Below, one piece after another: positions 1,274 through 52,140 of a stretch of DNA of 64,000 nt (positions are counted from its first letter, which is position 1; the number at the start of each line of letters is the position of its first letter). The stretch is from assembly GCA_050273025.1 (NCBI GenBank), contig CP158635.1, positions 12,214,001 to 12,278,000 on the forward strand. The letters are read 5' to 3'. Position numbers and translations under genes: made by a program. Under the pieces are notes generated by a model. It ran no database searches. It was not told where the DNA came from and worked only from the letters and a program-made list of their open reading frames with translations. This DNA comes from Cenococcum geophilum (lineage: Eukaryota).

Positions 1274-1561
1274 TATAGGACTAGTAGAGGAAGATATAGC
1301 GGTTATAGACGATGGTGTAGTTAAGGTAGGTTATCTAGGTAGGTTTGCTTATTAGGATTATACACGTGTACAAATCTCCCAGTTAGTTATAAGCGGTAAT
1401 AACGTTATAAAATAATTCTTAAACGAATGGATAATAAATATATAATGAATATTAATGAGTTTAGCAATATTAAAAGCGAATTAGCCACGTAGTGACTGCG
1501 TTTAATATTCGCAAATATTGCAGGAGGTCTTAGCATTATACGTTACTAAGGTAGTTGCTAC

Positions 1562-1984
1562 TGTAACGGAACCTTATAGCAGGAACTATAATAGGCTCGT
1601 TATTAGGCTAGGTATATAGGTGAAGTAAGTTAAAGTTAATAATGTAATAATAACTAGTGGAGTAGTTGCCTAATAGATTAACTCTAATTATATTCTAAGA
1701 ATTACTATAAGGAAGGAACTATCTAGGTAGGGACTAAGGGTCCTTAAATACATAACCGTACTCCTAAGAAATCCTTCTTATATATAATGTACGTCTTATA
1801 TATAAGGTATATAAGTTCCTCTTATTTCTCTTGTTTAATATATAGCATATTATATAACCTTAGTTACTATTCCTCGTTATATAGTTTTATTGGCTCCATC
1901 CTAGACTATACTTAAATTAACTAACTAGCTTCTTCCGACTCCCCTCCTAGTAGCTATAATATTATACTTAAAGCGTCCGTAACA
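1562..1984 (-). repeat. 3' LTR of element A
   Basis: TGTAACGGAACC...GTCCGTAACA; direct repeat of 16938-17360. Confidence 0.95.
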
Positions 1985-2092
1985 CTATCTCCCTCCTCTT
2001 TATCTTTGTCCTTAAAGATTTAAAATATCTCTAAGTTATTTACTAGAGGTATAATATCCGTCTAATTAATTTAGTTAATATTATTACTTATT

Positions 2093-2750
2093 ATACCTAA
2101 AGCAATTTCTTCTTTACACGCCCAACGTTGTGCTCGCACTGTTGCTGTAATAGTATCTCTTAATAAGATTATACCGTCTCTATATTCTTACTATTTAAAA
2201 GAGGGGTTAGTCTATATTGCGTTAGCGAACCCATCTTTACAATAACTGTCCTCTTATTTGGAGTGTACTAAAGTAAATATTTATTTGTCCTATAACATTC
2301 GCTCTACCTTTAATACTAAATATACGCGACCTATTACTCTTAATAGTTATCTAGTTCCCTAATTAATTTATCTTAGGGTTTTATATTTAATCTACTGCTA
2401 CGTAGCTAAATAGTAAACTATTGTATACCCTTATAGAGTTAGAATGTTCTTAGAATGCGGAATAGAAGGCCCTAGATACTCGTATTATGGCGTCTACTTA
2501 ATTACTCCGTCTTAAGAAGGTTTATAAAAAGGTGTATTTTAAAGAGTAGAAACTTATAAAATAAGGTCTGTAGGAACTTAGTAATAAAAGAATAGATTTT
2601 TTTTTAATAGAGAAGGAAATAGATCTAAGTAGCTCGGCAACTATTCTTCTTAGGTCCCCCTTAAGTAACTTATTCTTTGGCAATCCTTCTTTATTAATAC
2701 TGCCTGACCTAATTTCTTCTAATACTCCTATACCTTTCCTATAGCGTTCT
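2093..2750 (+). pseudogene. Antisense accessory ORF of element A: Zn2Cys6-like motif plus coiled coil, with a putative 55-nt intron (2322-2376)
   Basis: ATA(ATG) CCT AAA GCA at 2093. The Cys pattern is reconstructed from copies A, B and C. Removing 2322-2376 joins T+GG (Trp) into a heptad-rich frame (ELECS*NAE*KALDTRIMAST*LLRLKK). The 3' end is approximate. Confidence 0.6.
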
Positions 2751-5700: not shown

Positions 5701-5831
5701 ATTATTTGTTAACTTTAACTTATATTACCTATATACCTAGCCCATTAATAAACCCATTGTAGTTCCTACTATAAGGTTCCGTTATATAATTACTACCTGG
5801 TTACGGTATTAAGTATAAAAAGTTAAATAAT

Positions 5832-8768
5832 ATACCACCAAAGACAGCCACTACGACGCCATTAACGGCGGTAACTACTTTAAGGTTAGTAGGTAACACT
5901 AGTATAGCGGACACTAACTTTTAGTAACCTGTGACGGTCGGACAGTTATAAGAGGTAATTAATTAGTTAATAGCTAATAATACAGTGTTAGAAGAAAGGG
6001 TTAATGGGATAGGAGTAGCGAAGGTTAAGTTACCATTAATTAAGAGATTCTTAGGAGAAAGAACGAAGCTTAAGGGATTCCTTACGTAAATGCACTTTAA
6101 AGTTATATAAGAAGGGGTAAAGCTATTAATACCTATGGATCGAATAGCCTATGCAGGACTATTCTTATTAAGAAGAGTACTTAAGTAGTTTAAACCTTAT
6201 TTTATAGAGATATAGACGAATGGGATAACAACCACTAACTAAGAGGTGCGATTTATGTTCTTAAGCTGGGAAGGATTTATAGAGCGACTTATATAAATAT
6301 TTGGAGACCCGGAGGCAGTGACTATAGTAAAAAGAAAACTTTAAGACCTTATATAAAGAATATTAGTAATTAAGTATATAACGTAGTTCCAGACGCTAGT
6401 AATATAAGTAAAGTGAAATAATAAGGCGCTTATAGTATAGTATAAATAAGGACTTAAGGCTAAAGTTTAGGACATAATTATCCTAATAGAAGATGCGGAT
6501 ACCCTAAGGGACCTAATAGATTAAGCGATTAAGATTAATAATTGGATCTACTAAAGGGAACAGACTAAGAGAGGTTAAAATAGAGTTCTATAGTTATATA
6601 AGGCGTAAAGTACGTAATAACTAAAGCTAAGTTAGAAATTATGGTATGGTGCGGAGCTAATAGACCTAAGTGGTACTAAAGAAGCCTATAAGAGATAGAG
6701 TAAGAAACTATAGAAATTTAGAGGTTAAGGATTTAGTGATTATAGGACTAAGGAGTAGAGGCTAAACTAGGGATCTTAGTAGTAGAAGATATTTAGGCGG
6801 ACTTTATAGTAAAGTTAATGGTTTAAAGATGGAGCTTATATAAATTATAGGAAATAAGGTTATTTTGCGAGGAATTATAAAGATGGTTAGAGTTACTATA
6901 TAATAAAGGGAATAAGACTAGTAGTGGAAGACATATATATATAGAGGGACAATAGTATACTGCGAGGAATAAAGGAATGTTTAATTAGAAGTTTTACGTT
7001 CTATTATAACAACACATACCAAATTTATAAAGACGCTAAGTATGGCGTAAGCTATTAGCTATAGAAGCCGAAATCTATATAGTATAGAGGAACTAATGAA
7101 TTAGTTTATAGATCGGATATTAAGGACGATAACTTTAACGTAGGCGAAACATTCTGTAATAATAAGGTAATAAAGGCGGCTTACTAGGAGCACGTAAACC
7201 TTAGAGATGTTATAATAGAGGTAGAGGATAATTCTACTATAGAATAGGGAATATTAGTAGGGATTAAGACCCCACTAGACACGATGTTTATTGCTTTATA
7301 AGATATAAGAGAAGTAGGACAGTGAACTACTTTAGTACTTAATAAAGGTAAAAAGCTAAAGGCTTAAGATTCTTAAGACAAGATAAGAGATGACTAAGAC
7401 TTTTAAGATAAAATAAGGTAGACCTAAGGACCTATAATAGATAGCAACCGATAGAGTAGGGTAGTAGCTTAGTTTAAAGATATATAAATAAGCTTAGGAT
7501 AGAGTTTCCCATAGGTATAAGACTCTTAAAGTAAAATAAGTGAGATTTAAAACTCTTAAGACGAGATAAAAACACTAAGTAAGCCTAGATAGACTAAGGC
7601 TAGAGTAAAGCTTAAGTTAGAAGTAAGCTTAGGATTAAGAATCCTATAGAACTAAGACTTTAAGTAACAAATAAGGACTATTAAATAGATTAGAGAATCT
7701 ATAGTATAAACAGTAACTAGACTGGGAGACAGATATATAAACTTAGAGGACTTATTAGTAGAATATAGTGTTCGGACTAAAGATTAAAAAGTTAATACTA
7801 AGATTAAGAAGTAAGAAGACTTTAAGGATCTACTTATAAGACGCGAAAGAAAAGAGACTATAGAGGACTTTAGGGCAAAAATTACCTTATAGTAAGAATA
7901 GAAACTAGATAAGAGATCTAGCACGTTAGGACGTACTAAGGATAGAGTACCTGTATAAAGAATCACTAATAGGCCTAGGGTAGGCACACTAAGAGCTAAG
8001 TGGCTTATTAAACTGGAATAAGAAGAGGATTTAGGGATTTTAACTAGGTTCGAGGAACGACATATAAAAGGCTGTTACGACGTAGTAATGAGAAGATACT
8101 TCCTTATAGATAAACCGTATATACTCTAGCAGCTATACTAAAAGTAGTATAGGCAAAGGCACAACAATAAGTAGGAAGATTTCTATATATAGTTAGACGA
8201 GAAAGTTATTTAAGACTACCCGATTATAGAAAAAGCGATAAGTTATATTAAGGGAGCCTTAATTATAATATTAAAAGATCTAAAGGAGCGTTTAGAGGAC
8301 TAAAAAAGTAAAAGACATATCTTAGTACCTGCGAATAAAGTTATAACGTTTAGATTAATATAAGAGAGGTTTAAACTTAAGAATAAAGATAAACTAAGAG
8401 TTAACCTAAAGCACCTAGTATATTATATATTAACGTGGATTATATATATAAATAATACGTATAATATATATAGAGCACTAAAGGATAAGTATTAAAAATA
8501 TCCTATAAGAATATATTAGATAACTAAGGAGTAAAAATACTAGAACGCTAAGTATATATATAGCTAGTATCTAGTAGAAGTTTAGGAGTTAGGAGACTTA
8601 ATACTTTAGCTAGGAAGATTCCTTACGGAAGAATACCTAGATGGATAATAGTGGTGGGAATGCCTAGAGAATACGTATCTATAGTATATTAAAGAAAAGA
8701 AGCGAACTAAGTATTAGCTTAAGTTGGACTAAGTATAAATAGGATTAAGTAGCTAATAGTTGGGAAAA
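5832..8768 (+). pseudogene. gag: gag of element B with a long C-terminal extension
   Basis: ATA(ATG)CCACCAAAG start; KVKLPLIKRFLGERTKLKGFLT*M capsid lead-in; RIPed CCHC knuckle at about 6835-6880; ends at slippery heptamer G GGA AAA (8762-8768). Confidence 0.85.
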
Positions 8769-11700
8769 GTAGAGGCCTACGGGACCAGAGGGAGCCAGTA
8801 GTAGAGCCTTAGACCCTTAAAGGAATTTAAGGACAACACCTAAATTTATAAGTTAAATAGTAAGATTAATAGTTTAAGGCGTTAATAGATAGTGGAGCGA
8901 TAAGGAACTATATCTTATTAGTAGCAGTTAAGAGAATGGGATTACCTTATAAATAAAAGGAGAAACCTTACCTATTAGTAATAATTTTAGGAGATCTAAT
9001 AACCTATAGAGGAGGGATTATTAATTTAGAAACAGGACCTATTTAGTTAACTATTAAAGGGAGATAAATTGAGATGTCTTTTAATATATTACCATTAGGG
9101 AATAATAAGGTAGTACTAGGAATGCCTTAGTTATAGGAATATAATCTAAAGATCGATTAGATTATAAGTTAGGTTAATATTAGAGATACTTAACGCCATA
9201 AGATATAATAATAAGCTAAGTTAGTATAGTATTAAGTCGGAGCAATATATAAGGAGACTGAGTGAGGCTTAAGTTATATACCAAAGAGATACTATAAGTA
9301 CGGTAAGAAACTATAGTTACTAGAAAGTAAGAAACTGTTAAAATATATAGTATGGGACTATAAGATAGAATTAGAACTAGGAATAAGTCTAAAGTTCTTT
9401 CTAATATATAAGCTTACCGAAGAAGAAGGTAGAGCATTGAAAGAGTTTATCTAGGAAAACCTACGAAAGGGATATATTAGACCATCGCAGTTATTAGTAG
9501 GATATCCAGTACTATTCGTACTAAAGAAGAATAGTAAACTAAGACTGTGTATCGACTATAGATAGTTAAACAGTATTACTAGAAAGGATAAATATTCTTT
9601 ACCCTTAATTAGCGAAATCTAAGATAGGATAGGTAACACGTAAATCTTTACAAAGATAGATTTAAGATAGGCGTACTATTAAATCCGGATTAAGGAAGGC
9701 GACAAATAGAAGGCAGCCTTTAGGTTAAAGGAAGGACTGTATAAACCATTAGTTATATAATTTAGGCTTATAAACGCACTAGTAACGTTCTAGAAGCGTA
9801 TTAATAATATATTAGGAGAACACTTAGATGAATTTATTATGGTATATCTTAATAATATTATTATCTACTTAATAACTAAGGAAGAACACAGGGAACACGT
9901 TAAATGGGTTTTAAAGAGACTATAAGAAGAATAGATGCTAGTAGCGATTAAAAAATGCGAGTTCTTTACTAAAAAGATAGATTTTATCGGATTTATTATT
10001 AAACTAGGCCAACTTAGTATAGATCTAAAGAAGATTAAGGCTATAGTGAATTAGCAAGAACTAGAGAACGTAATACAGTTAAGATCGTTTTTAGGGTTTT
10101 GCAATTACTATAAAAGGTTTATAGCGCAGTAGTTAAAGGACATTAAGCTATTTACGCGGTTAATAAAGAAAGAAGAACTATAGGTATAGGGAGAGGAGTA
10201 GTAAGAACTCTTTAGAAAAGTTAAAGGGTTATTTACCTAGGAGCTAGTTCTTAAGATCTATTAACTAGGTCTAAAGACGGTTGTAGAGACGGACGCATTA
10301 GACTATATACTAGGGGTATACTTTATATAGAAATATTAAGATAGATGGCACCTAGTAGTATATTATAGTTGAAAAATAACACTACCGGAGTTAAACTATG
10401 ACATTTACAATAAGGAGTTATTAAGTATAGTTATAATACTAAAGGAATAGAGAGCATTCTTATAAGGTATAGAGAAACTATTTATAGTTAAAACAGACTA
10501 TAAGAACCTAATAGGATTTCTAACGACAAAGGAACTTAACTAAAAATAGGTTAGATGGGCGGAGATGCTTACAGAATACTATTTTGAGATTTAGTATACT
10601 AAGGGTAGATGCTCTAAGTTATAAGGCTAAACTATAGAACGATGAAAAGCCATTAGGGGCTTTACTGCGAAAAGATATAGACGGATTAATTAGATATAAC
10701 TATCCAAAAATCGCAGCAACTTAGGAAAATAAAGAACTAGAAAAAGTGTACAAGACATTAGAAAGCTTTTAGGAGTAAAGAATTCTAAAAGTATAGCTAG
10801 AAGATCTATAAATAGATATATATAAGAATTGAGAAGTAAAGTATATTCTAAAAAGCATAGCAGAGCAATTTATAGAAGATTTTTATAAAGGAATAACTTA
10901 AGGACATAATAGAGCCAGAGGCTTAGTGTCGAGACTCTAAGAGGAGTATATTATTAATAGAATCTAAAGCTTAGCACAGAAAATTACTAAAGAATATCTA
11001 GATTATTAAAGGAATAAACTAATAAGGTATAAGCCGTATAGAGGGCTATAACCTATTAAAACACTAGAGAGACTATAGGAGGTTATATTATGGGACTTTA
11101 TTATTAAGTTGCTAAAATTAAGAGATCCTATTACCGGATAAGATTATAACGTAATTTTAGTAATAGTAGACAAGCTTATAAAGTGGGGATACTTTATAGT
11201 ATATACAGAAGAAATCTTAGCGGAAGATGTTGCTAGAATCTATATAAAGGAAGTGTTTATAAAATATAAAGCACTAAGTAAGATTATATTAGATAGAGAT
11301 CTAAGATTTATAGTAGTATTTTAGGAGGTATTCTTAGCGGAGTAAGGAGTTAGAGTAGCAACTTTTACCGTATATTACCTATAGACAGACGGTTAAATGG
11401 AAAGATTAAATTAGACACTAGAGTAGTATCTAAGACATTATATTAATTATGTATAGAATAATTAGGTATTGCTATTACTAGTTATATAGTTTGCATATAA
11501 TGCAACACCTTAAAAAGGAATAGGTATATTACTATTTAAGGCGAATTACAGATATAAGCTAAGAATATTATTATTACTATAATAAGTAAAGAAAATAAGT
11601 AGCAGAGCTAAAGAAAGAATAAAGACGTTAATAAATCTTTATATAGACCTTATGGAATTAGTAAAGAAAGTATAAAAGAGAATAAAAAGGTACTATAATA

Positions 11701-12170
11701 CTAAGAGATCTAAGGGACCAGATCTTAAGGAGGGAAATAAAGTATAGCTACTATATAAAAATCTCAAGAGTTAATAACTAAGTAAGAAGTTAGACTACGT
11801 TAGACTAGGACCTTTTAAAATTATATAAAGGATTTTACTGGTTACATTTAAGTTAAACCTACTAGCTAAAATAAAGATCTACCCTATATAGTATATTGTA
11901 ATACTAGAGCTAGTATATAGGAATATTAAGCTATTAGTTTACGAAGCAGACACGTATAAAGGATAGGAAGAAGACAAATAGCAAGTTTTAAAGCTTATTA
12001 GTTATAAAAACGTTAACGATAAAATATAGTATAAGGTAAAGTAGATAGGCTATAATAAGACTACCTAGAAACTACTAAAGAATTAAAAAAATATTATAGG
12101 AAAGGTATAGGAGTATTAGAAGAAATTAGGTTAGGCAGTATTAATAAAAAAGGATTACTAAAGAATAAGT
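8762..12170 (+). pseudogene. pol: pol of element B (protease, RT, RNase H, integrase, chromodomain)
   Basis: LIDSGA at 8882; VYLNNIIIY (=YLDD) at about 9842; ETDALDY at about 10286; NYDIYNKELL at about 10394; WDFIIKL at 11091; TDG*MERLN*TLE*YL at about 11385; chromodomain at about 11970-12120. Many TAA/TAG stops. Confidence 0.9.
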
Positions 12171-12745
12171 CACCTAAGGGGGACCTAAGAAGAGCAGTTA
12201 CTGAACTACTTAGATCTATTTCCTTCTCTATTAAAAGAGAATCTGTTTTTTTATTACTAAGTTTTTATAGACCCTATTCTATAAGTTTTTACTTCTTAAA
12301 ACGCACCTTTTTATAACCCTTCTTAAGATAAAGTAAATGAGCAGACGCCGTAATCTAAGTATCTAAGGCTTTCTATTCCACATTATAAGAATATTCTAGC
12401 TTAGTAAGAGCCTAAGATAGTTTACCATCTAGCTAAGTAGCAGTAGATTAGACACGAGATTTTAAGATAAATTAATTAGGGAACTAGACAACTATTAAGA
12501 GTAATAGGTCACGTATATTTAGCATTAAAAGTAGAGCGAACGTTACAGGATAAATAAATATTTGCTTTAGTATACTTTAAATAAGAGGACGGTTATTATA
12601 AAGAAGGGTTTGCTAACGTAATATAAACTAACCCCTTTTTTAAACAGCAAGAATATAGAGATAGTATAATCTTACTAAGAAATAGTATCGCAGTAATAGT
12701 ATAAGCACGACGTTAGGCGTATAAAGAAGAAATTACTTTAGGTAT
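12090..12745 (-). pseudogene. Antisense Zn2Cys6-like/coiled-coil ORF of element B
   Basis: Reverse-complement homologue of 2093-2750, at the same position between the pol end and the PPT. Confidence 0.55.
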
Positions 12746-15700
12746 AATAAGCAATAATATTAACTAAATTAATTAAACGGATATTATACCTCTAGTAAAC
12801 GACTTAAAGATATTTTAAATCTTTAAGGACAAAGATAAAGAGGAGGGAGATAGTGTTACGGACGCTTTAAGTATAATATTATAACTACTAGGAGAGGAGT
12901 TAGAAAAAGCTAGTTAGTTAATTTAGGCATAATTTAGAATAAAGCCGATAGAACTATATAATAAGAAACGGTAATTAAGGTTATATAACGTGCTATATAT
13001 TAAATAAGAGGAATAAGAGAAACTTACGTACCTTATATATAAGACGTACATCACGTATAAGAAGGATTTCTTAGGAGTACGGTTATATATTTAAGGACCC
13101 TTAGTCCCTACCTAAATAGTTCCTTCCTTATAATAATTCTTAGAATATAATTAGAGTTAATCTATTAGGCAACCACTCTACCAGTTATTATTATTTGTTA
13201 ACTTTAACTTACATTACCTACACACCTAGCTTATTAATAAACCTATTATAGTTCCTGCTATAAGGTTCCGTTATAATTATAATAGTCTAATATATCCTTT
13301 TCGTAGATTTTCCTAGATAAACTCTTTTAATACACTACCTTTTTCTTCGGTAAGCTTATAGATTGGAAAGAACCTTAGACTTATTCCTAGTTCTAATTCT
13401 ATCTTATAGTCCTATGCTATATACTCTAATAGCTTTTTATTTTCTAATAACTATAGTTTCTTACTATACTTATAGTATCTTTTTGGTATATAACTTAAGC
13501 CTTACTTAGTTTCCTTATATATCACTTTAACTTAGTACTATACCAACTTAGCTTATTATTATATTTTGCGGCATTAAGTATCTCTAATATTGACCTGACC
13601 TATAACCTAATTAATCTTTAGATTATATTCCTATAACTAAGGCATTCTTAGTACTACCTTATTATTCCCTAATAGTAATATATTAAAAGACATCTTAATT
13701 TATCTCCCTTTAATAGTTAACTAAATAGGTCCTGTTTTAAGATTAATAATCCCTCCTCTATAGGTTATTAGATCTCCTAAAATTGTCACTAATAGGTAAG
13801 GCTCCTCCTTTTACCTATAAGGTAGTCCTATTCTCTTAACTACTATTAGTAAGATATAGTTCCTTATTGCTCTACTATCTATTAACACCTTAAACTATTA
13901 ATCTTACTATTTAACTTATAAATTTAGGTATTATCCTTAAATTCCTTTAAGGGTCTAAGGCTCTATTACTAGCTTCCTCTACTTTTCCTAACTATTAGCT
14001 ACTTAATCCTATTTACGCTTAGTCCAACTTAGGCTAATACTTAGTTTACTTTTTGTCTTTAATATACTATAGATATATATTTTCTAGGCATTCCCACTAC
14101 TATTATTTATTTAGGTATTCTTCTGTAAAGAATCTTTCTAGCTAAAGTATTAAGTCTTCTAACTTCTAGACTTCTACTAGATGCCAGTTATATATATACT
14201 TAACGTTCCGGTATTTCTGCTCCTTAGTTATCTAATATATTCTTATAGGATATTTTTAATACTTATCCTTTAGTGCTATGTATATATTATATATATTATC
14301 TATATATACAATCCACGTTAACATATAATATGCTAGGTGCTTTAGGTTAACTCTTAGCTTATCTTTATCCTTAAGTTTAAACCTCTCTCGTATTAATCTA
14401 AACGTTACAACTTTATTTACAGGTACTAAGATACGCCTCTTGCTTCTCCAGTCCTCTAATTATTTCTTTAGATCTCTTAATATTATAATTAAGGCTCCCT
14501 TAATATAACTTATTGCTTTCTCTATAATTAGGTAATTTTAAATAACTTTCTCATCTAACTATATATAGAAATCTTCCTACTTATTGTTGTGCCTTTGCCT
14601 ATACTACTTTTAGTACAGCTGCTAGAGTGTATACGGCTCGTCCGTAAGAAAGTATCTTCTTATTACTATATTATAATAGCCCTTTATATATCGTTCCTTA
14701 AACCTAATTAAAATCCCTAAATTCTCTTCTTATTCTAGTTTAGTAAGCCACTTAACTCTTAATATGCCTACCCTAGGCTTATTAGTGATTCTTTATATAG
14801 GTACTCTATCCTTAGTACGTCCTAATATACTAGATCTCTTATCTAGTTTCTGTTCTTACTATAAGGTAATTCTTACTTAAAACTCCTCTATAGTTTCTTT
14901 CCTTTTACGTCTTATAAGTAGATCCTTAAAGTCTTCTTACTTTTTAATCTTAGTATTAGTCTTCCGATCTTTAGTCTAAACGCTATATTCTACTAGTAAG
15001 TCCTCTAGGTCTATATATCTGTCTCCTAGTCTAGTTACTATTTATACTATAGATTCTCTAATCTATTTAATAGTCCTTATTTATTACTTAAAATCTTAGT
15101 TCTATAGGATTCTTAATCCTAAGCTTGCTTCTAACTTAAGCTTTACTCCAGCCTTAGTCTATTTAGGCTTGCTTAGTGTTCTTATCTTATCTTAAGAGTC
15201 TTAAATCTCACTCATCTTACTTTAAAAGTCTTGTACCTATAGGAAACTCTATCCCAAGCTTATTTATACGTCTTTAAACTAAGCTACTGCCCTACTCTAT
15301 CAGTTTCTGTCTATTATAGGTCCTTAGGTCTACCTTATTTCATCTTAAGAATCTTAAGCCTTTAGCTTCTTGCCTTTATTAAGTGCCAAAATAATTTATT
15401 ATCCTACTTCTCTTACGTCTTATAAAGCAATAGACATTATATCTAGTGGGGTCTTAATCCCTACTAATGTTTCCTGTTCTATAGTAGAATTATTCTCTAC
15501 CTCTTTTATAATATCTTTAAGGTCTATATACTCCTAGTAAGCCGCCTTTATTACCTTATTATTACGGAATATTTCGCCTATTTTAAAGTTATTGTCCTTA
15601 ATATCTAATCTGCGAACTGGTTTATTAGTTCCTCTATACTATATAGATTTTAGCTCCTATAGCTAATAGCTTACGCCGTACTTGGCGTCCTTATAAATTC

Positions 15701-16937
15701 GGTATACGTTGTTATAATAGAACGCGAAACTTCTAATTAAATATTCTTTTATTCCTCGCAGCATACTATCGTCCCTCTATACGTATATATCTTCTACTAC
15801 TATTAGTCTTATTCCCTTTATTATATAGTAACTCTAACTATCTTTATAATCCCTCGCAAAATAACCTTATTTCCCGTAATTTATATAAGCTCCATTTTTA
15901 AACCATTAACTTTGCTATAGAGTCCGCCTAAATATCTTCTGCTACTAAGATCCCTAGTTTAACCTCTACTCTTTAGTTCTATAATTACTAGATTCTTAAT
16001 TTTTAGGTTTCTATAGTTTCTTACTCTATCTCTTATAGGCTTCTTTAGTACCACTTAGGTCTATTAGCTTTGCGCCGTACCATAGTTTCTAACTTAGCTT
16101 TAGTTATTGCGTACTTTACACCTTATATAACTATAAAACTCTATCCTAACCTCTCTTAACCTGTTCCCTTTGGTAGATCTAATTATTAATCTTAATTGCT
16201 TAATCTATTAGTTCCCTTAGGGTGTCCGCATCTTCTATTAGGATAATTACGTCCTAGACTTTAGCCTTAAGTCCTTGCTTATACTATGCCATAAGTACCC
16301 TATTATTCTACTTTATTTATATTGCTAGTGTCTAGAACTATATTATATACTTAATTGCTAAAGTTCATTGCATAAGGTTCTAGAGTTTTCTTTCCGCTAT
16401 AGTTATTTCTTCTAGATCTCTAAATATCTGCGTAAGTTATTCTATAAATCCTTCCTAACTTAAGAATATAAATCGCACGTCCTAATTGGTAGTTATTATT
16501 CCATTTGCCTATATCTCCGTAAGATAAGGTTTAAACCACTTAAGTGCTTTTCCTAATAAGAATAGTCCTGTGTAGGCTATTCGATCCATAGGTATTAGTA
16601 GTTTTACTCCTTCTTATAAGACCTTAAAATGCATCTACATAAGGAATCCTTTAAGCTTTAATCTCTCTCCTAAGAATCTTTTAATCAATAGTAGCTTAAT
16701 CTTTACCGCTCCTATCCTATTAAGTCTTTCTTCCAACACTGCATTATTTGCTATTAACTAGTTAACTATCTCTTATAGCTATCCGACCGTTATAGGTTGC
16801 TATAAGTTAGTACCTGCTATACTAGTGTCGTTTTCTAATCTTAAAGTAGTTACTGCCGTCGATAGCGTTATAGTGGCTACTTTTGGTGGCATATTATTCG
16901 ACTTTTTATACTTATTACTATAACTAGGTAGTAATTA

Positions 16938-17360
16938 TATAATAGAACCTTATAGCAGAAACTACAATGGGCTTATTATTGGGCTAGGTATATAGGTAAA
17001 GCAAGTTAAAGTTAACAATATAATAATAACTGGTGGAGTGGTTGCCTAATAGATTAACTCTAATTATATTCTAAGAATCACTATAAGAAAGGAACTATCT
17101 AGGTAGGGACTAAGGGTCCTTAAATACATAACCGTACTCCTAAGAAATCCTTCTTATATATGATGTACGTCTTATACGTAAGGTATATAAGTTCCTCTTA
17201 TTCCTCTTATTTAATACGTAGCATATTATATAACCTCGGTTACCATTCCTCGTTATATAGTTCTATCGGCTCCATTCTGGACCGTGCCTAAATCAACTAA
17301 CTAGCTTCTTTCGACTTCCCTCCTAGTAGTCGTAACATTATACTTAAAGCGTCCGTAATA
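16938..17360 (-). repeat. 5' LTR of element A
   Basis: TATAATAGAACC...GTCCGTAATA; differs from 1562-1984 mostly by C/T and G/A transitions. Confidence 0.95.
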
Positions 17361-41970: not shown

Positions 41971-42063
41971 CTTTAAAAGCTAACTGTATATTCCTTGACA
42001 TGCAATTAAGGTAAAGTTATATACTAATTACGCAAATGAATTTTTACACAGTTTTATTACTTA

Positions 42064-42390
42064 GAGGCTCTGCATAAGGCTCTATACGAAGCTCTACACG
42101 AAGCTCTGCGTACAGAGGCTCTGCACGAAGCTCTGCACGAAGCTCTGCACGAAGCTCTGCACGAAGCTCTGCACGAAGTTCTGCACGAAGCTCTACACGA
42201 AGCTTTGCATAAGGCTCTACACGAGGCTCTACACGAAGCTCTGCGTACAGAGGCTCTGCCCGAAGCTCTACGTACAGAGGCTCTGCGCGAAGCTCTGCGT
42301 ACGGAGGCTCTGCACGAGGCTCTGCACGAAGCTCTGCACGAGGCTCTGCGCGAAGCTCTGCGTACAGAGGCTCTACACGAAGCTCTGCAT
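42064..42390 (+). repeat. Minisatellite 2: 12-bp unit with a 15-bp variant
   Basis: GARGCTCTRCAC / GAAGCTCTGCGTACA; reads EALH / EALRT in one stop-free frame. Confidence 0.95.
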
Positions 42391-42509
42391 CGGGTCCCCG
42401 CTATATTCCCGATAGCCTCTCCTATGTAGCCACCTTATTTTTTTTATCCATCCATCCTTCCTTACATCCTCCCTACCTAGGGAGGCACCAGAACGGCAGC
42501 TAGCAGAGG

Positions 42510-42852
42510 ACCGTCGCCAGAACTAGACGACCGTTACCAGAACCAGACGACCGTCGCCGTCGCCAGAACTAGAACACCGTTACCAGAACCAGACGACCGT
42601 CGCCAGAACAAGACAACCGTCGCCAGAACCAGACGACCATCGCTAGAACTAGACGACCGTTACCAGAACCAGACGACCGTCGCCGTCGCCAGACGACCGT
42701 TACCAGAACCACACGACCGTCGCCAGACGACCGTCGCCAGAGCTAGACGACCGTCGCCAGAACCAGACGATCGTCGCTAGAACCAGACAACCGTTACCAG
42801 AACTAGACAACCGTCGCCAGAACCAGACAACCGTTGCCAGAGCTAGACGACA
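42510..42852 (+). repeat. Minisatellite 3: 20-bp unit with 14- and 26-bp variants
   Basis: ACCGTCGCCAGAACCAGACG, about 17 copies. Confidence 0.95.
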
Positions 42853-42904
42853 ACGACTAGCCAGCAAACACTATAAACGATTTAATCGATCAATTAAATT
42901 AAGG

Positions 42905-43318
42905 CAGCACAGACAGGTAGGCACAAACAGGGAGATGCTAACGAGTAGGTAGATGCTGACAGGTAGGCAGATGCAGACTGGTAATTAGATACAGATAGGT
43001 AAGCAGATGCAGATAGGTAAGTAAATGCTGACGGGTAGGCAGATATAGATAGGTAGGCAGATATAAATAGGTAGGCGATGCAGACAGGTAGGCAATGCAG
43101 ATAGGTAGGCAATGCAGATAGGTAGGCGATGTAGATAGGTAGGTAATGTAAACAGGTAGGCGATGTAGATAGGTAGGCGATGCAGACAGGTAGGCGATGT
43201 AGACAGGTAGGCAATGCAGATAGGTAGGCGATGCAGACAGGTAGGCAATGTAGATAGGTAGGCGATATAGGTAGGTAGGTAGATAGGTAGGTAGGTAAGT
43301 TAATAGGTAGATAGGTAG
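42905..43318 (+). repeat. Minisatellite 4: 17/18-bp unit followed by (AGGT)n
   Basis: ATGCAGAYAGGTAGGCR, about 20 copies, then an AGGT/AGAT tetranucleotide run. Confidence 0.95.
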
Positions 43319-44149
43319 AAGAGAACCATTGCTATATTATATTAAATTATCTAAAATAATATTTATTTTGCTAGCCTTATAAATAGCCTTAAAGTAGCTT
43401 TTATTTATTTAAAATATGCTATTAGTATAAAAGAGGTAAATATAATTGTGGTTACTAAATGCGCAGATTACTGGCAGGTTTTGCGTAGGTTGCGTGTAGG
43501 TTGCGCGTAGACTGCGCGCAGGCTGCGTGTTAAAAAAACACGATATAGGCTAGTCGGTTGAGTTGCTAAATGCCCTTAACTGCGCGCTAATTGCGTCAAC
43601 CACTAACCATTAAGGCCATTGGTAGGGTACCATATTTTGCCGATGTAGTAGTTAGCTTAGGGTAAATAGCTACTATAGGTTCGGGGCCCACGTTCTACAT
43701 ATTTATCTCTAAAGATAGTATTCGGTCTTAAGGCCCTAACGTAGGCATCTTAAGTATGCGGATTTCTTCTTAGAGGTCCTTAATTATTTGCTAGTATTAT
43801 ACTTCTTATTTAGCTTATCGTTAATTTAAAGTAGTTTAGTTTTATATAAGGGCGTTTATAAAAGACTTCTATATTTCTACTAGTTATTTTTAGAGTATAG
43901 ATATAATACTAACGGCCGTTATAGGGGCTTTAGGGTTATTCTATATTTTGGGGGTAGTATATAAAGTTAACGCAATATAGTGTTACAGAGTAAGTATAAG
44001 TAGCAATAATATATAGTAAGGTAGATATTATTAAGCTATATATATAAACTATATAAGAAGTTAAGACGTTATATAAGGAAAGAAGGTAAAAAACGGGAGG
44101 AAAGGGTATATATTGTTAACTTAGTTACTTAGTTAATACGTATACAGGG

Positions 44150-47100
44150 TGTAATAGAGCCTTATAGCAAGAACTACGGTAGACTCGTTAATGGGCTAGG
44201 TATATAGGTAATGCAGGAAATCAACAACGTAATAATAACTAGTAGAGTGGTTGCCTAATAGATTAACTTTAATTATATTCTAAGAATTACTATAAAGAAG
44301 GAACTATCTAGGTAGGGACTAAGGGTCCTTAAATATACAACCGTACTCCTAAGAAATCCTTCTTATACGTGATGTACGTGATATATATAAGGTACGTAAG
44401 TTCCTCTCGTTTCTTGCGTAGTATACGTAGTATATTATATAACCTTAGTTACTATTCCTCGTTATATAGTTCTATGGGTTCTATCTTAAACTATGCTTAT
44501 ATTAACCAACTAGCTTCTTCTAACTCCTCTCTAAGTAGTTATAACATTTTACTTAAAGCGTCCGTAATACTATCTCCCTTCTTTTTATCTTTGTCCTTAA
44601 AGATACCTAGTATCTCTAGGTTGTTTACTAGAGGTATAATATCTATCTAATTAATTTAGTTAATATCTTTACTTATTATACTTAAAGCCTCTTCTTCTTT
44701 ATACGCGCAACGTTATATATATATAGTTGCTTCTATACTATTGCTTAGTAAAACAATACCGTCTCCATGTTCTCGTTGTGTGAAAAAGAGGTTAGTTTGT
44801 ATTACGTTAGCAAGTCCTTTATTTTAGCAACCCTCTTTTTGCTTAGAGTGTACTAAAGCAAATATCCTAATTGTCTTGCGATGTTCGCTCTTCTTCTAAC
44901 GCTAAATATACGCGTCCTATTACTCTTAATAATCTTTAAGTCCCCTAAGTAATTTATTATAGGGTTTTATATTTAGTCTACTGCTATAAAGCTTAATAGT
45001 AACCTAGTGTAGGCCCTTACTAAGCTTAAGCGTTTTTGTAATGTGGAATAGAAGGCCCTAAATACTTATATTACGGTATCTGCCTATCTCCTTCGTCTTA
45101 AGAAAGTTTATAAAAAGGTTCGTTTTAAGGAGTAGAAACTTATAGAATAAGATTTATAGGAACTTAGTAATAAAAAAACGGATTCTCTTTTAATAGAGAA
45201 GGAAACAACTCTAAGTAGTTCGGCAATCGTTCCTCCTAGGTCCCCCTTAGGTAGTTTATTCCTTAATAATCCTTCTTTATTAATGCTACCTAACCTTTTT
45301 TCTTCTGATACTTCTATACCTTTCCTATAATATTCTTTAAATTTTTTAGTAGCTCCTAGGTAGTCTTATTATAGCCTATCCACTTTACTTTATACTATAT
45401 TTTATTGTCTATGTCCTTATAATTAACGATCTTTAAAACTTACTATTTATCTTCCTCTTATCCTCTATACATGTCTGCTTTATAGACTAGTGGCTTAATA
45501 TTCCTATATACTGGCTTTAGTATCGCGATATACTATACGGGATAGATCTTTATTTTAGCTAGTAGGTTTAACTTAAATGTAATTAGTAAAATTCTTTTTA
45601 TAATTTTAAAAGGTCCTAGTTTAACATAGTCTAACTTCTTACTTAGTTGTTAACTCTTAAAATTTTTATATAGTAGCTATACTTTATCCCCCCCCCTTAA
45701 GATCTAGTCCCTTAGATCTCTTAGTATTATAATACTTTTTTATTCTTTACTATACCACCTTTACTATTTCTATAAGGTTTCTATAAAGATTTATTAGTAT
45801 CTCTATTCTTTACTTAGCTATACTACTCGTTCTTTTCGCTTAATATAGCAATAGTAATATTCCTATTCCTTCTTAAGGTGTTGTATTATATGCGAACTAT
45901 ATAACTAGTAATAATAATACCCAATTGTTCTGTATATAATTAATATAGTGTCTTAGATACTACTTTAGTATTTAATTTAATCTTTCCGTTTAACTGTCTG
46001 TCTGCAGATAATATATAGTAGAAGTTACTGCTTAAACTCTTTGCTTCGCTAAAAATACCTTCTAAAATACTGCTATAAATCTTGGATCTCTATCTAATAT
46101 AATTTTGCTTAGTGCTCCGTGTCTTATAAACACTTCTTTAATATAGATTTTAGCGATATCTTCCGCTAAGATTTCTTCTGTATATACTATAAAGTATCCC
46201 TACTTTATTAGCTTGTTTACTATTACTAAGATTGCGTTATAATCTTACCCGGTAATAGGATCTCTTAATTTTAGCAACTTTATAATAAAGTCCTATAATA
46301 TAACCTCCTATGGTCTCTCTAGTATTTTAATAGGTTATAGCCCTTTATATAGCTTATACCTTATTAGTTTATTTCTTTAGTAATCTAGATATTCCTTTAT
46401 AACTTATCTTGCTAGTCCCTAAATTCTATTAATAATATACTCCTCCTAGAGTCTTAATACTAAGCCTATAGCTCCGTTATGTCCTTAAGTTAGTCCCTTA
46501 TAAAATAACTTAATAAACTCTTTTATAATATTTCTTAGCATATATATTACTTCTTAGTTTTTATACTACTCTAAGTTTAGATCCTCTACCTATATATCTT
46601 AGATCTTTTATAACTATATACTCCCTAATACCTTATAGGTCTAACTAATTTCTCTTATTACTATAATTTTTAGATAATTGTATCTAATTAATCTATCTAT
46701 ATCTTTTCGTAGTAAAGCCCCTAATAGCTTTTCGTTATTTTATAATTTAGCCTTTTTACTTAGAGTATCTACTTATATATTGTTTGTACCCTTAGTATAC
46801 TAAATCTTAAAATGGTATTTTATAAGCATCTCTACCTATCTAACCTATCTCTAATTAAGTTCTTTCGTTATTAAGAACCCTGTTAGGTTTTTATAATCTA
46901 TCTTAACTATAAATAGCTTCTCTATACCTTATAAGAATGCTCTTTATTTCTAAAGTACTATAACTATACCTAATAACTCCTTATTATAAATGTTATAATT
47001 TAATTCCGGTAGTATTATCTTTCGACTATAGTATGCCACAAGGTGCCATCCGTTTTTGTATTTTTATAGGAAGTATACCCCTAGTATAAAGTTTAATATA

Positions 47101-50100
47101 TTTATTTCGACCACTATTTCTAGCTTTAGTTGGCAGATTTTAAGGATTAGGTCTTAAGTAAACAACTCCTTAACCTCCTTAAATAGTTTCCTTTGCTCTT
47201 TTCCTTATATCTAAGGTTCTTCTTTCTTTATTAACCTTATAAATGGCTTAATATCCTTTAACTATTAAGCTATAAACCTTCTACAGTAATTGTAAAACCC
47301 TAGAAATAACCTTAACTATATAACGTTCTCTGGTTCTTACCAATTTACTATAGCCTTAATCTTCTTTAGATCTATGCTAAGTTGGCCTAGTTTAATAGTA
47401 AATTTAATAAAATCTGTTTTCTTAGTAAAGAACTCGCATTTTTTAATTGCTACTAGCATCTGCTCTTTTTATAGTCTCTTTAAGACCTATTTAATATGTT
47501 CTCCATGCTCTTCCTTACTTATTAAGTAGATAATAATATTATTAAGGTATACTATAATAAATTTATCTAAGTGCTCTCTTAATATATTATTAATACGTTT
47601 CTGGAATGTTGCTAGTATATTTATAAGCCTAAACTATATAACTAATGGTTTATATAGTCCTTCCTTTAACCTAAAGGCTGCCTTCTATTTATTACCTTCC
47701 TTAATTTAGATCTAATAGTATACCTATCTTAAATCTATCTTTATAAAGATTTACGCATTACTAATCCTATTTTAGATCTTATTAATTAAGGGTAAAGGAT
47801 ACCTATCCTTCCTAGTGATGCTATTTAACTGTTTATAGTTAATGCATAGCCTAAGTTTTCTATTTTTCTTTAGTATAAATAGTACTAGATATCCTACTAA
47901 TAACTATAATAGTCTAATGTATCCCTTTTATAAGTTCTCCTAGATAAACTTTTTTAGTGCTCTCCCTTCTTCTTTGGTAAGCTTATAGATTAAAAAGAAC
48001 CTTAAACTTATTTCTAGTTCTAATTCTATCTTATAGTCCTATGCTGCATACTCTAACAGCTTTTCACTTTTTAGTAATTATAGTTTCTTACCATATTTAT
48101 GGTATCTCTTTAGTATATAACTTAGTCCTTTATCTATTTCTTTATAGGTTACCCCTACTTAGTACTATACTATTTTAGCCTGTTATTATATCTTATAGCA
48201 TTAAGTATCCCTAATATTAACCTAACCTATAATCTAATTAATCTTTAGATTATATTCCTGTAACTAAGGTATTCCTAATACTGCCTTATTATTCCCTAAT
48301 AGTAATATGTTAAAAGATATCTTAATTTATCTCCCTTTAATAGTTATCTAAATAGGTCCTATTTTAAGATTAATAATACCTCCTCCGTAGGCTATTAGAT
48401 CTCCTAAAATTATAACTAGTAGATAAGGGTACTCCTTTTATCTATGCAGTAGCCCTACCCTTTTAACTACTACTAGTAAGATATAATTCCTTATTACTTT
48501 ACTATCTACTAATACTTCGAACTATTAATCTTACCATTTAACTTATAAATTTAGGTATTATCCTTAAATTCCTTTAAGGGTTTAAGGCTTTACTACTAGC
48601 TTTCTTTAGTTTTATAGGCCTCTACTTTTCCTAACTATTAGCTGTTAGATTTTATTATACTTAGCTTACTTTTTATCCTTAATATACTATAAACACGTAT
48701 TCTCTAGGCATTCCTACTACTATTATCCATCTAAGTATTCTTCTATAAGAAATCTTCCTAGTTAAAGTATTAAGTCTCCTAACTCCTAAACTTTCACTAG
48801 ATGCTAGCCATGTATATACTTAGTATTTTTGTACTGTTGCTTATCTAGCGCCTAATATATCCTTATAAAGTATTTCCAGTTCTTTTCTTTTGGATTTTTG
48901 TATATTTTATATATATTATCTATATATACAATCTATGCCAATATATAATGCGCTGGGTGCTTTAAATTAACTTTTAACTTATTTTTATCCTTAAGTTTAA
49001 ACCTCTGTTGTATTAATCTAAACGTTATAACTTTATTTGCAGGTACTAAGATACATCTTTTACTTCTTTAGTCCTCTAATTATTCCTCTAGATCTTTTAA
49101 TGTTATAATTAAGGCTCCCTTAATATAATTTATTGCTTTTTCTATAATTAGGTAGTTTTAGATAACTCTCTTATCTAACTATATATAGAAATCTTCCTAC
49201 TTATTATTATGTCGCTACCTATACTACTTTTAGTATAGCTATTAGAGTATATACAGCTTGTCCATAAGGAAGTATCTTCTTATTACTATATTGTAATAGC
49301 CCTTTATATACCGTTCCTTAAACCTAGTTAGAATTCCTAGATTCTTTTTATTTTCTAATTTAGTAAGCTATTTAGCTTTTAGCGTGCCTGCTTTTGGCCT
49401 ATTAGTAATTCTTTATACTAGTACTCTATCTTATATATGACTTAGTGTGCTAGATCTTATGTCTAGTTTCTTATCTTGCTATATAATAATTCTTACTCTA
49501 AATTTATCCATTATCTCTTTAACTACTCGCCTTATAAATAGATCTTTAAAGTCTCCTTACTTCTTAATTGTAGTATTAACTTTTTAATCTTTAGGCTAAA
49601 CGCTACGTTCCCCTAGTAAGTCTTCTAGATTTATATATCTGTCTCCTAGTCTAACTGCTATTTATATTATAGATTCTCTAATCTATAAAGAAGCCTCTTA
49701 CCTCTTACTTATAGGTGTCCGTATTTATACTCTAAATTCTTAGTCCCTTAGATTTTTTAATCCTAAGCTTACTTCTTTCTTAAGCTATACTTTAGCCTTA
49801 GTTTAACTAGGCTTTACTAGTGTTTTTATCTTATTTTAAGAGTCTTAAATCTTACTTATCTTGTCTTAAAAGTCTTATATCTTTAGGAAACTTTATTCTA
49901 AGCTTATTTATATATTACTAAACTAAGCCGTTGCTCTGCTCTATTAGTTATTATCCATTATAGGTCCCTAAGTATACCTTATCTTATCTTAAGAATCTTA
50001 AGCCTTTAGCCTTTTACCTTTATTAAGTAGTAAGCTAGTACTAGCAGTTGTTTGCTTACTTAATTATCTTTAAATATTACTCCTTCTGTCTTATAAAGCG

Positions 50101-52063
50101 ATAGATACTGTATCTAATAGTGTTATAATACCTATTACTGAACCTTGCTTTATAGCGGTTTCAGTCTCTACTTCTATTACGTTATTAAGGCTTAAATACC
50201 CCTAGTTAGTTCTTTTTTTTCCCTTATTACTGTTAATTAATAAGTACTTTAACTCTATTATTATTATTACTAATCTTTATCTATATATTACTGTAATATC
50301 TTAATCTAGCTTATAGAGTTAATTTTGTTCTTTATCTAACTCTTTAGTTTCTTTAAGTCCTCTTAACTCTAGCTCCTATAGCCAATAGCTTACGCTATAC
50401 TTAGCGTCTTTATAAATTTAGTATGCGTTATTATAATAAAACGCAAAACTTCTAATTAAATACTCTTTTATTTCTTGTAGTATACTATTATCCCTCTATA
50501 TATATGTGTTATATACTATTAATCTAGTTCCCTTTACTACGTAGTAACTCTAACCACTTCTATAATCTCTAGCAAAATAACCCTATTTTCTATAATTTAT
50601 ATAAGCTCCGTCTTTAAACTATTGCTTTTACTATAAAGTCCGCTTAAATATCTTTTGCTATTAAGATCCTTGGTTTAACCTATGCTCCTTAGTCCTATAA
50701 TTACTTAATTCTTAACTTCTAGGTTTCTATAGTTATTTTCTCTATCTCTTATAGTTTTTTTTAGTACCGCTTAGGTCTATTAGCTCTGCGCCATACTATA
50801 GTTTCTAATTTAACTTTAATTATTACGTACTTTGCACCTTATATAACTATAAAACTTTATCCTAGCCTCTCTTAGCCTATTCCCTTTAGAAGATCCTATT
50901 ATTAATCTTAATTACTTAATCTATTAATTTCCTAAGGGTGTCCGTATCTTCCGTTAGAATAATTACATTCTAAACTTTTACCTTAAGTCCCTATTTATAC
51001 TATGCTATAAGCGCCTTATTATTCTATTTAACCTATATAGCTAACGTCTAAAACTGCGTTATATACTTAATTGCTAAGGTTCGCTATATTAGGTCCTAAA
51101 GCTTTCTTTCTACTATAGTTATTACTTCCAGGTCCCTAAATATTTATATTAATTATTCCGTAAATTTAGTTTAGCTTATAAATATATATCATACTTCCTA
51201 ATTAGTAGTTGTTATACTATTATCCTATATCTCCATAAGGTAGGGTTTAAACTATTTAAGTGCCCTTCCCGTTAGGAATAATCCTGCGTACACTACTTAA
51301 TCTATAAGTATTATTAACTTTACTCCTTCCTATGTGACTTTAAAGTGTATTTATATAAGGAATCCTTTAAGCTTTAATCTCTCTCCTAAGAATTGTTTAA
51401 TTAAAGGTAACTTAACCTTAGCTACTCCTATTTTATTAACCCTTATTTTAAGTGCCGTATTATTATCTATTAACTAATTAACTATTGCCTGTAACTATCC
51501 GACTATAACTAGTTACGAGTTAGTATTTGCTATACTAGTATTATTACCTAACCCTAAGGTTGTTGCTGCCGCTAATAGCGTCATTATGGCTGCTTTTAGT
51601 AGTATATTGTTTAACTTCTAAGACCGTAACTAGGTAGTAATTGTGTAATAGAGCCTTATAGCAAGAACTATAGTAGACTTATTAATAGGCTAGGTATATA
51701 GGTAATGCAGGAAGTTAACAACGTAATAATAACTGGTAGAGTGGTTGCCTAATAGATTAACTCTAATTGTATTCTAAGAATTACTATAAGGAAGGAACTA
51801 TCTAGGTAGGGACTAAGGGTCCTTAAATACACAAACGTACTCCTAAGAAATCCTTCTTATACGTGATGTACGTGATATACATAAGGTACGTAAGTTCCTC
51901 TCATTCCTCGCGTAGTATACGTAGCATATTATGTGACCTTAGTTACCATTTCTCGTTATATGGTTCTACGGGTTCCATCCTAAACCGTACTTATATTAAC
52001 TAACTAGCTTCTTCCAACTCCTCTCTAAGTAGTCGTAATATTGTACTTAAAGCGTCCGTAACA
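44150..52063 (-). mobile_element. Ty3/gypsy chromovirus C (family 1), full length, inserted in the 5' LTR of F
   Basis: 420-bp LTRs at 44150-44569 and 51644-52063; TSD CAGGG/CGGGG; colinear with A and B (gag start about 51605, pol down to about 45250). Confidence 0.95.
44678..45340 (+). pseudogene. Antisense Zn2Cys6-like/coiled-coil ORF of element C (best-preserved Cys codons)
   Basis: PCSRCVKKRLVC-x13-CLEC then SCDVRS after a 1-nt indel (44765-44890); putative 55-nt intron 44908-44962. Confidence 0.65.
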
Positions 52064-52140
52064 CGGGGCAGAATAGGATTTAAATAGCGGTCCTAGCAGA
52101 ACTTAACAAAATTTGGTGGACTTGGTAGAATATAGCAGAA

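Follow-up and report, generated by a model that had tools for sequence, protein, structure and literature searches.

Boty-like retrotransposons are said to carry an additional gene, brtn (reportedly Zhao et al. 2011, Virology 417:248). The passages that deal with brtn in the papers citing it describe an additional antisense gene between pol and the 3′ long terminal repeat (LTR) of the Ty3/gypsy elements Boty and BcGypsy1 (PMC8365987, PMC7264820), and they place brtn-carrying Boty-like elements in Botrytis cinerea and Sclerotinia (PMC8365987, PMC7264820, PMC4227169, PMC5987419). In plants, according to the corresponding passages, antisense additional open reading frames (ORFs) lie between pol and the 3′ LTR of maize Grande, rice RIRE2 and Silene Retand, the last with TRP28-domain proteins, and a DNA-binding or regulatory role is suspected for them and unproven (PMC7264820, PMC11963269); the antisense genes of the human T-cell leukemia virus (HTLV) are mentioned in one of these sources (PMC11963269). 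An antisense gene between pol and the 3′ LTR is thus a layout already known from plant elements and from brtn of Boty. Here we analyzed a 64,000-nucleotide stretch of the Cenococcum geophilum genome (assembly GCA_050273025.1, contig CP158635.1, positions 12,214,001 to 12,278,000; hereafter the window), which holds three copies, A, B and C, of a Ty3/gypsy retrotransposon that we call family 1. Our reading, to which we give a probability of roughly 78%, is that family 1 carries a real third gene, which is antisense, spliced once at a phase-1 intron lying within a Trp codon, overlaps the end of pol, was selected in related elements and is dead in the window.

As far as the passages on the plant elements go, the likeness lies in where the gene sits and which way it points, in its occurrence in most copies of a family and in a degree of conservation comparable to that of the other element genes. 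Of the aORF-3R criteria, we see in family 1 the location between pol and the LTR, the strand opposite gag-pol and coding-type conservation among copies. For transcription from a promoter of its own, a further criterion, the single, indirect hint comes from the six intron-less protein calls described below. The differences from the plant genes, within the same passages, are the kingdom, the protein families (TRP28 in Silene Retand) and the size of the region between pol and the LTR, which is 2.9–6.6 kb in Retand versus about 0.75 kb in family 1.

The antisense reading consists of two exons, 199 codons including the stop, and lies between the polypurine tract (PPT) and the end of pol in all three family-1 copies (Table 1), where the original prediction, made from the letters of the window, had placed an opposite-strand ORF. 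Of the span then given for copy C, 44678 to 45340, the start holds and the end does not, the gene stopping at 45330. In copy C the start codon sits 106 nt in from the LTR edge, and the spliced readings of A, B and C each finish on a stop. Internal stops number nine in copy A, 12 in copy B and eight in copy C, all of them TAA or TAG, and in each copy ATA replaces the ATG start and AT replaces the GT donor. The AT donor had already been noted for every window copy, and GT itself is present in 10 of the 84 related copies described below. The 861 columns of the three-copy alignment of this region contain 182 transitions, 48 transversions and one gap column among the variable ones; because the repeats differ mostly by transitions, we attribute the differences to repeat-induced point mutation (RIP), and the host of family 1 is a RIP-active ascomycete.

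The cysteine module of exon 1 has been eroded to different degrees. All six Cys are kept in copy C, two in copy B (YCYYYC) and one in copy A (YYYYCY), with Tyr at the lost sites because RIP turns TGY into TAY. The spacing C-x2-C-x6-C-x13-C-x2-C, which had been singled out in copy C together with a sixth Cys about eight residues later, occurs in one raw frame of that copy and is the sole match in the six frames of the window, against an average of 0.01 matches in each of 200 shuffled versions. In the frame of copies A and B, x8 separates the fifth Cys from the sixth, which in copy C is displaced by an extra base at 44866, a private 1-bp insertion not found in 83 of the 84 aligned copies. Removal of the 55-nt segment between the exons yields an in-frame Trp (T/GG, the slash marking the junction) in copies A and C, as predicted, and T/AA in copy B, where both the acceptor and the Trp codon are RIP-mutated. 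A column-wise comparison of the three copies leaves exon 1 free of stops over 77 codons, with all six Cys recovered, and exon 2 with seven shared stops; under the same comparison the pol frame retains 2–9 stops per 100 codons. A tblastn search of the window with the related metagenome proteins P0062, P0098 and P0004 returned the three known copies only, and no second family carrying the gene. In all three window copies the antisense gene is a dead, RIP-killed relic.

To see what the gene looked like in its relatives, we used an alignment of 84 copies, comprising the three of the window and 81 full-length copies on metagenome contigs, all of them RIP-mutated. The metagenome copies were taken from the best 80 loci of 548 matching stretches, and the kept loci are 59–84% identical at the nucleotide level. 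At the start codon, 26 copies have ATG and 57 have ATA, 98% of copies retain the terminal stop, and each of the six Cys codon columns reads TGY or TAY in 83–84 of the 84, so that the cysteine codons are indeed conserved in related elements. At the seven exon 2 stops common to the window copies, some relatives have sense codons, for Gln, Trp, Lys or other residues. Indels in the exons are of 30 types, 27 of which are multiples of three; the three exceptions each occur in a single sequence, one of them being the extra base of copy C. Selection was measured on transversions, as RIP does not make them, and the ratio of nonsynonymous to synonymous changes (N/S) was scaled by opportunity. Transversion diversity at the first, second and third codon positions is.033,.014 and.096 in exon 1 and.040,.026 and.094 in exon 2, and second positions are the least variable in each of the first eight sliding windows. 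The resulting N/S is 0.25 in exon 1 and 0.40 and 0.37 in the two segments of exon 2; in each of these three segments the other five frames give higher values. The dN/dS comparison that accompanied the original prediction, run in this form, thus gives values well below 1. Read in this way, the substitution pattern indicates that purifying selection maintained the antisense reading frame in related elements throughout the diversification of the family.

Several observations weigh against this reading, and they concern in turn the sense strand, the splicing and the protein itself. On the first count, long antisense frames arise in these elements by a mirror effect alone: the longest in the three-copy comparison is the mirror of the gag region, and ORF length alone therefore proves little here. 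Moreover, the sense frame that mirrors the gene, with coinciding third positions, is free of fixed stops too, save those around the intron, and its N/S is nearly as low in exon 2, at 0.45 and 0.44. The pol frame is likewise free of fixed stops down to 45098–45100, the first stop held by 98% of copies being at 45098. If the constraint acted on the sense strand, be it on the pol tail or on another sense ORF, the antisense frame would be open merely by complementarity. We hold this explanation to be highly improbable, since the gene frame has the lowest N/S everywhere, with 0.25 in exon 1 against 0.59 for the mirror frame, and since second codon positions are the least variable and the six Cys columns are conserved. 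The sense frames are also broken by fixed stops at 44896–44926 and at 44973, and the ATG, the stop, the GT..AG boundaries and the 3n+1 shift of frame across the intron make sense on the antisense strand only. The pol tail was rejected as the source of constraint over 45100–45327, its frame giving an N/S of 1.46 there.

Two of these frames deserve more detail. The one opposite the gag region has 140 codons (7655–8074 in copy B, with the matching parts of A and C) and one to three stops in the raw RIP-mutated copies; its existence speaks for the ease with which mirror ORFs arise, and it was rejected as a gene, being rich in Leu, Ser, Ile and Phe as the mirror of a purine-rich sense frame. As for pol, no fixed stop appears in its frame until 45098, and pol and the antisense gene therefore overlap tail to tail, over what may be up to 230 nt (45098–45330). 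Over 45229–45318, transversion diversity is about 0.01 at all codon positions.

The predicted intron has the properties of a spliced segment in the 84 copies. Its length is 55 nt in all 84, with no indel inside it, while the flanking exons hold the 30 indel types. Its first base is G in 10 copies and A in 74, its second base is T in all 84, and its last base is G in 79, which gives GT..AG boundaries where RIP has not struck. The most diverged locus, L077 (59% nucleotide identity), carries a different intron of 91 nt, also 3n+1 and placed in the same Trp codon and phase, and a CTGAC motif stands 13 nt ahead of its acceptor. When the spliced-type protein P0004 was used as a tblastn query, none of the matches in the 80 kept loci began before residue 15, which places all their starts on the junction Trp or beyond it. 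The search for relatives that have escaped RIP, proposed along with the original prediction, yielded six non-RIPped metagenome proteins that are continuous across the predicted junction, reading ..E-W-S-[RQ]-V.. (P0004, P0015, P0056, P0062, P0073 and P0098), all of them on contigs of 0.9–1.4 kb. Judging from these protein calls, spliced RNA is the likeliest template of the six. Four other proteins show what is obtained when the segment stays in place: in P0136 and P0137 the reading continues past exon 1 into intron sequence, where the junction codon is Cys (T plus a donor whose first base is G) and a stop soon follows, and P0012 and P0054 start inside the intron, the latter on a contig of 120 kb. 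An intron can survive retrotransposition here because it is antisense to the genomic RNA.

On the side of splicing, the opposing points are that the six continuous proteins are known as protein calls only, whose template may have been RNA or intron-less DNA copies, and that the contig of P0098 has about 790 nt upstream of the ATG, which is long for a leader. They would suit an account in which the 55-nt segment is never removed, DNA variants that lack the intron give rise to the continuous proteins, and the intron-bearing copies make two products or none. The contig of P0062, with about 700 nt downstream of the stop, and the odd junction of P0134 could be read in the same sense. We nevertheless find this account very unlikely, given the exact 55-nt length in every DNA copy beside indel-rich exons, the different intron of L077 in the same codon and phase, the GT..AG boundaries, and the occurrence of continuous forms on short contigs as against the unspliced P0054 on a contig of 120 kb. 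P0134 itself (contig of 2113 nt) reads ..AEC-TFH-VRS.. at the junction, is one residue longer than the spliced form and differs from the unspliced reading too; it could represent an alternative splice site or a mutated copy.

Relatives of the antisense gene are numerous in environmental sequence. Among 1.84 billion proteins, a profile of exon 2, built from the three window copies with stops as X, matched 49 cluster representatives at E≤1e-3, of which 15 reached E≤1e-10, a profile of exon 1 matched two RIP-mutated relatives, and a word-based protein search gave 95 related proteins. In three of the protein searches, with 95, 10 and 2 hits, all hits are metagenome calls from JGI, ENA or SRC, and none comes from NCBI or UniRef. 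Two of the non-RIPped proteins, P0062 and P0098, represent the intact form. These results bear on whether the gene could simply be the already described brtn or a homologue, in which case the host alone would be new. Both lie in Ty3/gypsy elements of fungi, and the passages on brtn put it, like the gene of family 1, antisense between pol and the 3′ LTR (PMC8365987, PMC7264820). Yet BRTN proteins are, according to one passage, present in the NCBI protein database (PMC5987419), from which, as from UniRef, our searches drew no match, and Boty measures about 6.4 kb (supplementary table of PMC8365987) versus 7.8–7.9 kb for family 1. By description, which is the level at which the two were compared, they also differ in that the citing passages report no cysteine module, long helix or intron for brtn. 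Identity with brtn or plain homology therefore seems to us rather unlikely. In the literature searched, which takes in few subscription journals, we found no fungal retrotransposon described as carrying an antisense gene for a cysteine-cluster or coiled-coil protein.

The encoded protein, of about 198 residues, comprises in order a short basic N-terminal helix, the six-Cys module, a helix of about 100 residues, a Ser/Thr/Pro-rich stretch and an acidic-hydrophobic tail. An AlphaFold2 model of P0062, made from a 35-row alignment, has a mean predicted local distance difference test (pLDDT) of 71. It places the helix at residues 98–197, beginning seven residues after Cys6, with block means of 94–98 over residues 101–190 and averages of 69 and 73 for the blocks 91–100 and 191–200. 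Two P0062 chains (residues 48–200) modelled with four zinc ions scored 0.28, with the mark at 0.32, which speaks neither for pairing nor against it. The conserved tail, at about 45238–45327 in copy C, is rich in Asp, Phe, Leu, Met and Pro; in the six intact relatives the last 30 residues contain 2–4 Asp or Glu, 0–1 Lys or Arg and 10–15 bulky hydrophobic residues.

It is in the protein that the remaining opposing points are found. A helix rich in heptads had been proposed, and of this the long helix is predicted by the model too. A crude heptad count on four intact relatives is not above chance, 149 to 498 of 500 shuffles reaching the observed value, and the term heptad-rich is therefore not confirmed. 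Neither the profile searches nor the structure model assigned the cysteine module to a family. AlphaFold2 gives a pLDDT of about 50 over the cysteine module of P0062, and the profile search of the PDB gave no match for that module. Zn_clus (PF00172) stays below its cut-off of 21 bits, the best score being 16.2 bits (E 0.012) for the N-terminal piece of P0098, and its alignment is out of register, Cys1–3 falling on profile positions 18–36, in the second half. DUF3716 (PF12511) is also below its cut-off of 22 bits, with 11.3 bits for P0098 and a best E of 0.01, and appears in three of six N-terminal pieces.

One identity that was weighed is a true member of the GAL4-type Zn(II)2Cys6 family, perhaps captured in the distant past from a host transcription factor, binding CGG-type sites and dimerizing through a coiled coil. 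Zn(II)2Cys6 clusters have the spacing C-x2-C-x6-C-x5-12-C-x2-C-x6-8-C, and basic residues between Cys2 and Cys3 contact DNA. The resemblance that the original prediction had drawn to this family has several points in its favor: the module has six invariant Cys spaced x2, x6, x13, x2 and x8, so that four of the five gaps fit and the x13 loop is one residue over, and it is arranged in two C-x2-C-x6-C-like halves with a short linker, followed seven residues past Cys6 by a long helix, in a fungal protein. A Pro stands three residues before Cys4, Zn_clus is the commonest weak Pfam match (four of six N-terminal pieces), and PPR1 is the best zinc-cluster protein in the sequence search of the PDB, at E 4.4; by sequence and by profile, that database gave nothing below E 0.06. 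Membership, in contrast, is not borne out. The Zn_clus score is under the Pfam cut-off in every test, even on intact relatives, with 13.6 bits for whole P0098, 8.1 for whole P0062 and 11.5 for the read-through of copy C. On the raw 55-aa ORF of copy C, Pfam found nothing, and reading the stops of copy C as X brought no more than weak matches to C6_DPF (E 0.027) and Zn_clus (E 0.33). Between Cys2 and Cys3, one or two of the six residues are basic in the intact relatives, beside an acidic residue, and the protein has fewer than 200 residues and no middle homology region of the usual kind. In both ESM Atlas searches the 30 nearest clusters include none with Zn_clus, and DUF3716 scores as well as Zn_clus does. 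We therefore see membership of this family as doubtful.

The nearest ESM Atlas clusters are ascomycete proteins without a name, at 0.90, 0.89, 0.86 and 0.85, with DUF3716 at 0.76–0.77 only. DUF3716 is a fungal cysteine-bearing domain that, in the passage concerned, also occurs in two genes of the class II transposon REP9 of Zymoseptoria tritici (PMC8232023). What the two share is a weak match over profile positions 7–59 of 59, covering all six Cys, an association with transposons, as far as that passage goes, and one DUF3716-bearing cluster among the Atlas neighbors; what separates them is a score far under the cut-off and Atlas scores within the range of chance. At the N terminus, residues 7–35 of P0098 (codons ~5–33, 44690–44776) gave a sub-threshold match, at E 0.8–1.0, to the basic region and helix 1 of the basic helix-loop-helix (bHLH) protein ARNT. 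This likeness is probably due to chance; if real, it would offer a second way to touch DNA.

What the protein does can be proposed at a lower level of confidence. HBZ of HTLV-1 lies opposite gag-pol; its transcription starts from the 3′ LTR and one form is spliced, and the product is a small protein of the nucleus that has an activation region and a pairing helix. By analogy, the antisense transcript of family 1 would initiate in or beside the 3′ LTR, and removal of the intron from it would give a protein of about 198 residues whose six cysteines would bind zinc and which would pair through its long helix. The protein might then act in the nucleus on LTR-driven transcription as an element-encoded DNA-binding regulator. 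That the product is such a zinc-binding, helix-paired nuclear regulator, made from an antisense RNA starting in or beside the 3′ LTR, is a tentative proposal to which we give somewhat less than an even chance. The likeness to HBZ is one of possible mode of action only and does not extend to sequence: HBZ belongs to the bZIP proteins and lacks a cysteine cluster, whereas the family-1 protein has one, and for family 1 transcription from the LTR and action in the nucleus are only proposed.

The main alternative to the regulator role is that the gene is real and its role a different one, the product serving as an adaptor whose helix and tail contact Gag, integrase or silencing factors of the host, or the antisense RNA being itself the active agent, with the protein secondary to it. 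No DNA-binding family was recognized in the protein, and the helix is charged, without a clear heptad pattern, both of which would suit an adaptor. The tail of the gene overlaps the 3′ end of pol, and an antisense RNA would therefore pair with the genomic RNA, which counts for a role at the RNA level; the purifying selection on the protein frame, including the cysteine module, would be needless for a purely RNA role. We rate this alternative as possible, if on the unlikely side. A broader and still speculative extension of the regulator proposal, which we hold to be less likely than not, is that a fungal Ty3/gypsy clade encodes a zinc-binding dimeric DNA-binding factor from a spliced 3′-LTR antisense transcript, setting transcription or blunting silencing, a factor unrelated to brtn and absent from curated databases. 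Such a clade-wide factor would be to these retrotransposons what HBZ is to HTLV-1 or the transactivator to foamy viruses.

Family 1 is a Ty3/gypsy retrotransposon, with an LTR pair, a PPT, and reverse transcriptase (RT), RNase H and integrase on one strand. Pfam matches on the element strand are RVT_1 (2.6e-18), RT_RNaseH (2.3e-20) and SH3_Tf2-1 (6.6e-6, 26.6 bits, just under the cut-off of 30); the Pfam search of the element reported no rve match and no Chromo match at E≤1, and the integrase core and a chromodomain-like motif were recognized by eye only. The element is 7.8–7.9 kb long and its LTR pairs are 87–89% identical. Copy B is nested within copy A in opposite orientation (window 1515–17358), and a BLAST search of the window with 44300–45500 returned two full copies besides C, at 81% identity, at 1715–2914 and, on the other strand, 13123–11924. 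In copy C the first base of the LTR, in element sense, is 44572. The window is AT-rich, with a G+C content of 27–45%.

Some further observations concern the surroundings of the gene. C-to-T changes before T are as frequent as before A (CpT 76, CpA 63, CpG 28, CpC 15; both strands, 44560–45420 with copies A and B), so that RIP does not show here the strict CpA preference that it has in Neurospora. In copy B the RT domain begins about 4.1 kb into the element, and about 3.7 kb separate it from the 5′ LTR (5787–9520), a span that is long for gag plus protease and in which no Pfam family was reported at E≤0.001. Just outside copy C, at 42040–43340, lies a block of short tandem repeats with 45% G+C, open in several frames (EALH and PTYL repeats).

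Table 1. Positions in the window of the family-1 copies, of the antisense gene and of the features around it in copy C
Feature	Position	Strand	Basis and remarks
Antisense gene exon 1, copy C	44678..44907	+	codons 1–76 and first base of codon 77; start is ATA
Six-cysteine module, copy C	44768..44879	+	codons 31–67, C-x2-C-x6-C-x13-C-x2-C-x8-C
Intron, copy C	44908..44962	+	55 nt, phase 1; donor AT (from GT), acceptor TAG
Antisense gene exon 2, copy C	44963..45330	+	rest of codon 77 to codon 198, stop TAA 45328–45330
Antisense gene, copy A	2093..2744	+	exon 1 2093–2321, intron 2322–2376, exon 2 2377–2744
Antisense gene, copy B	12094..12745	-	exon 1 12745–12517, intron 12516–12462, exon 2 12461–12094
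pol 3′ end, copy C	45098..45400	-	chromodomain-like motif ~45390–45290, by eye only; per-codon counts in 84 copies
Polypurine tract, copy C	44573..44592	-	purine run directly abutting the LTR, read from sequence
3′ LTR, copy C	44109..44572	-	local alignment with 51603–52064, 461 nt, 89% identity; outer boundary approximate
Element copy C	44109–52064	-	BLAST copy and LTR pair
Element copy B	5362–13275	+	BLAST copy and LTR pair
Element copy A	1515–5361 plus 13276–17358	-	BLAST copy and LTR pair

LTR retrotransposons are usually viewed as gag-pol machines, and the fungal clade described here keeps in addition a selected, intron-bearing antisense third gene, common in environmental fungal DNA and without a named record in the databases searched. 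RIP hides this gene from ORF finders, and gene callers that are blind to splicing return it in pieces. Its intron is a natural marker, as it persists only through its antisense placement relative to the genomic RNA. If it is true that the protein regulates LTR transcription, the activity of fungal transposons would be partly self-controlled, as in complex retroviruses, which would bear on the plasticity of fungal genomes.

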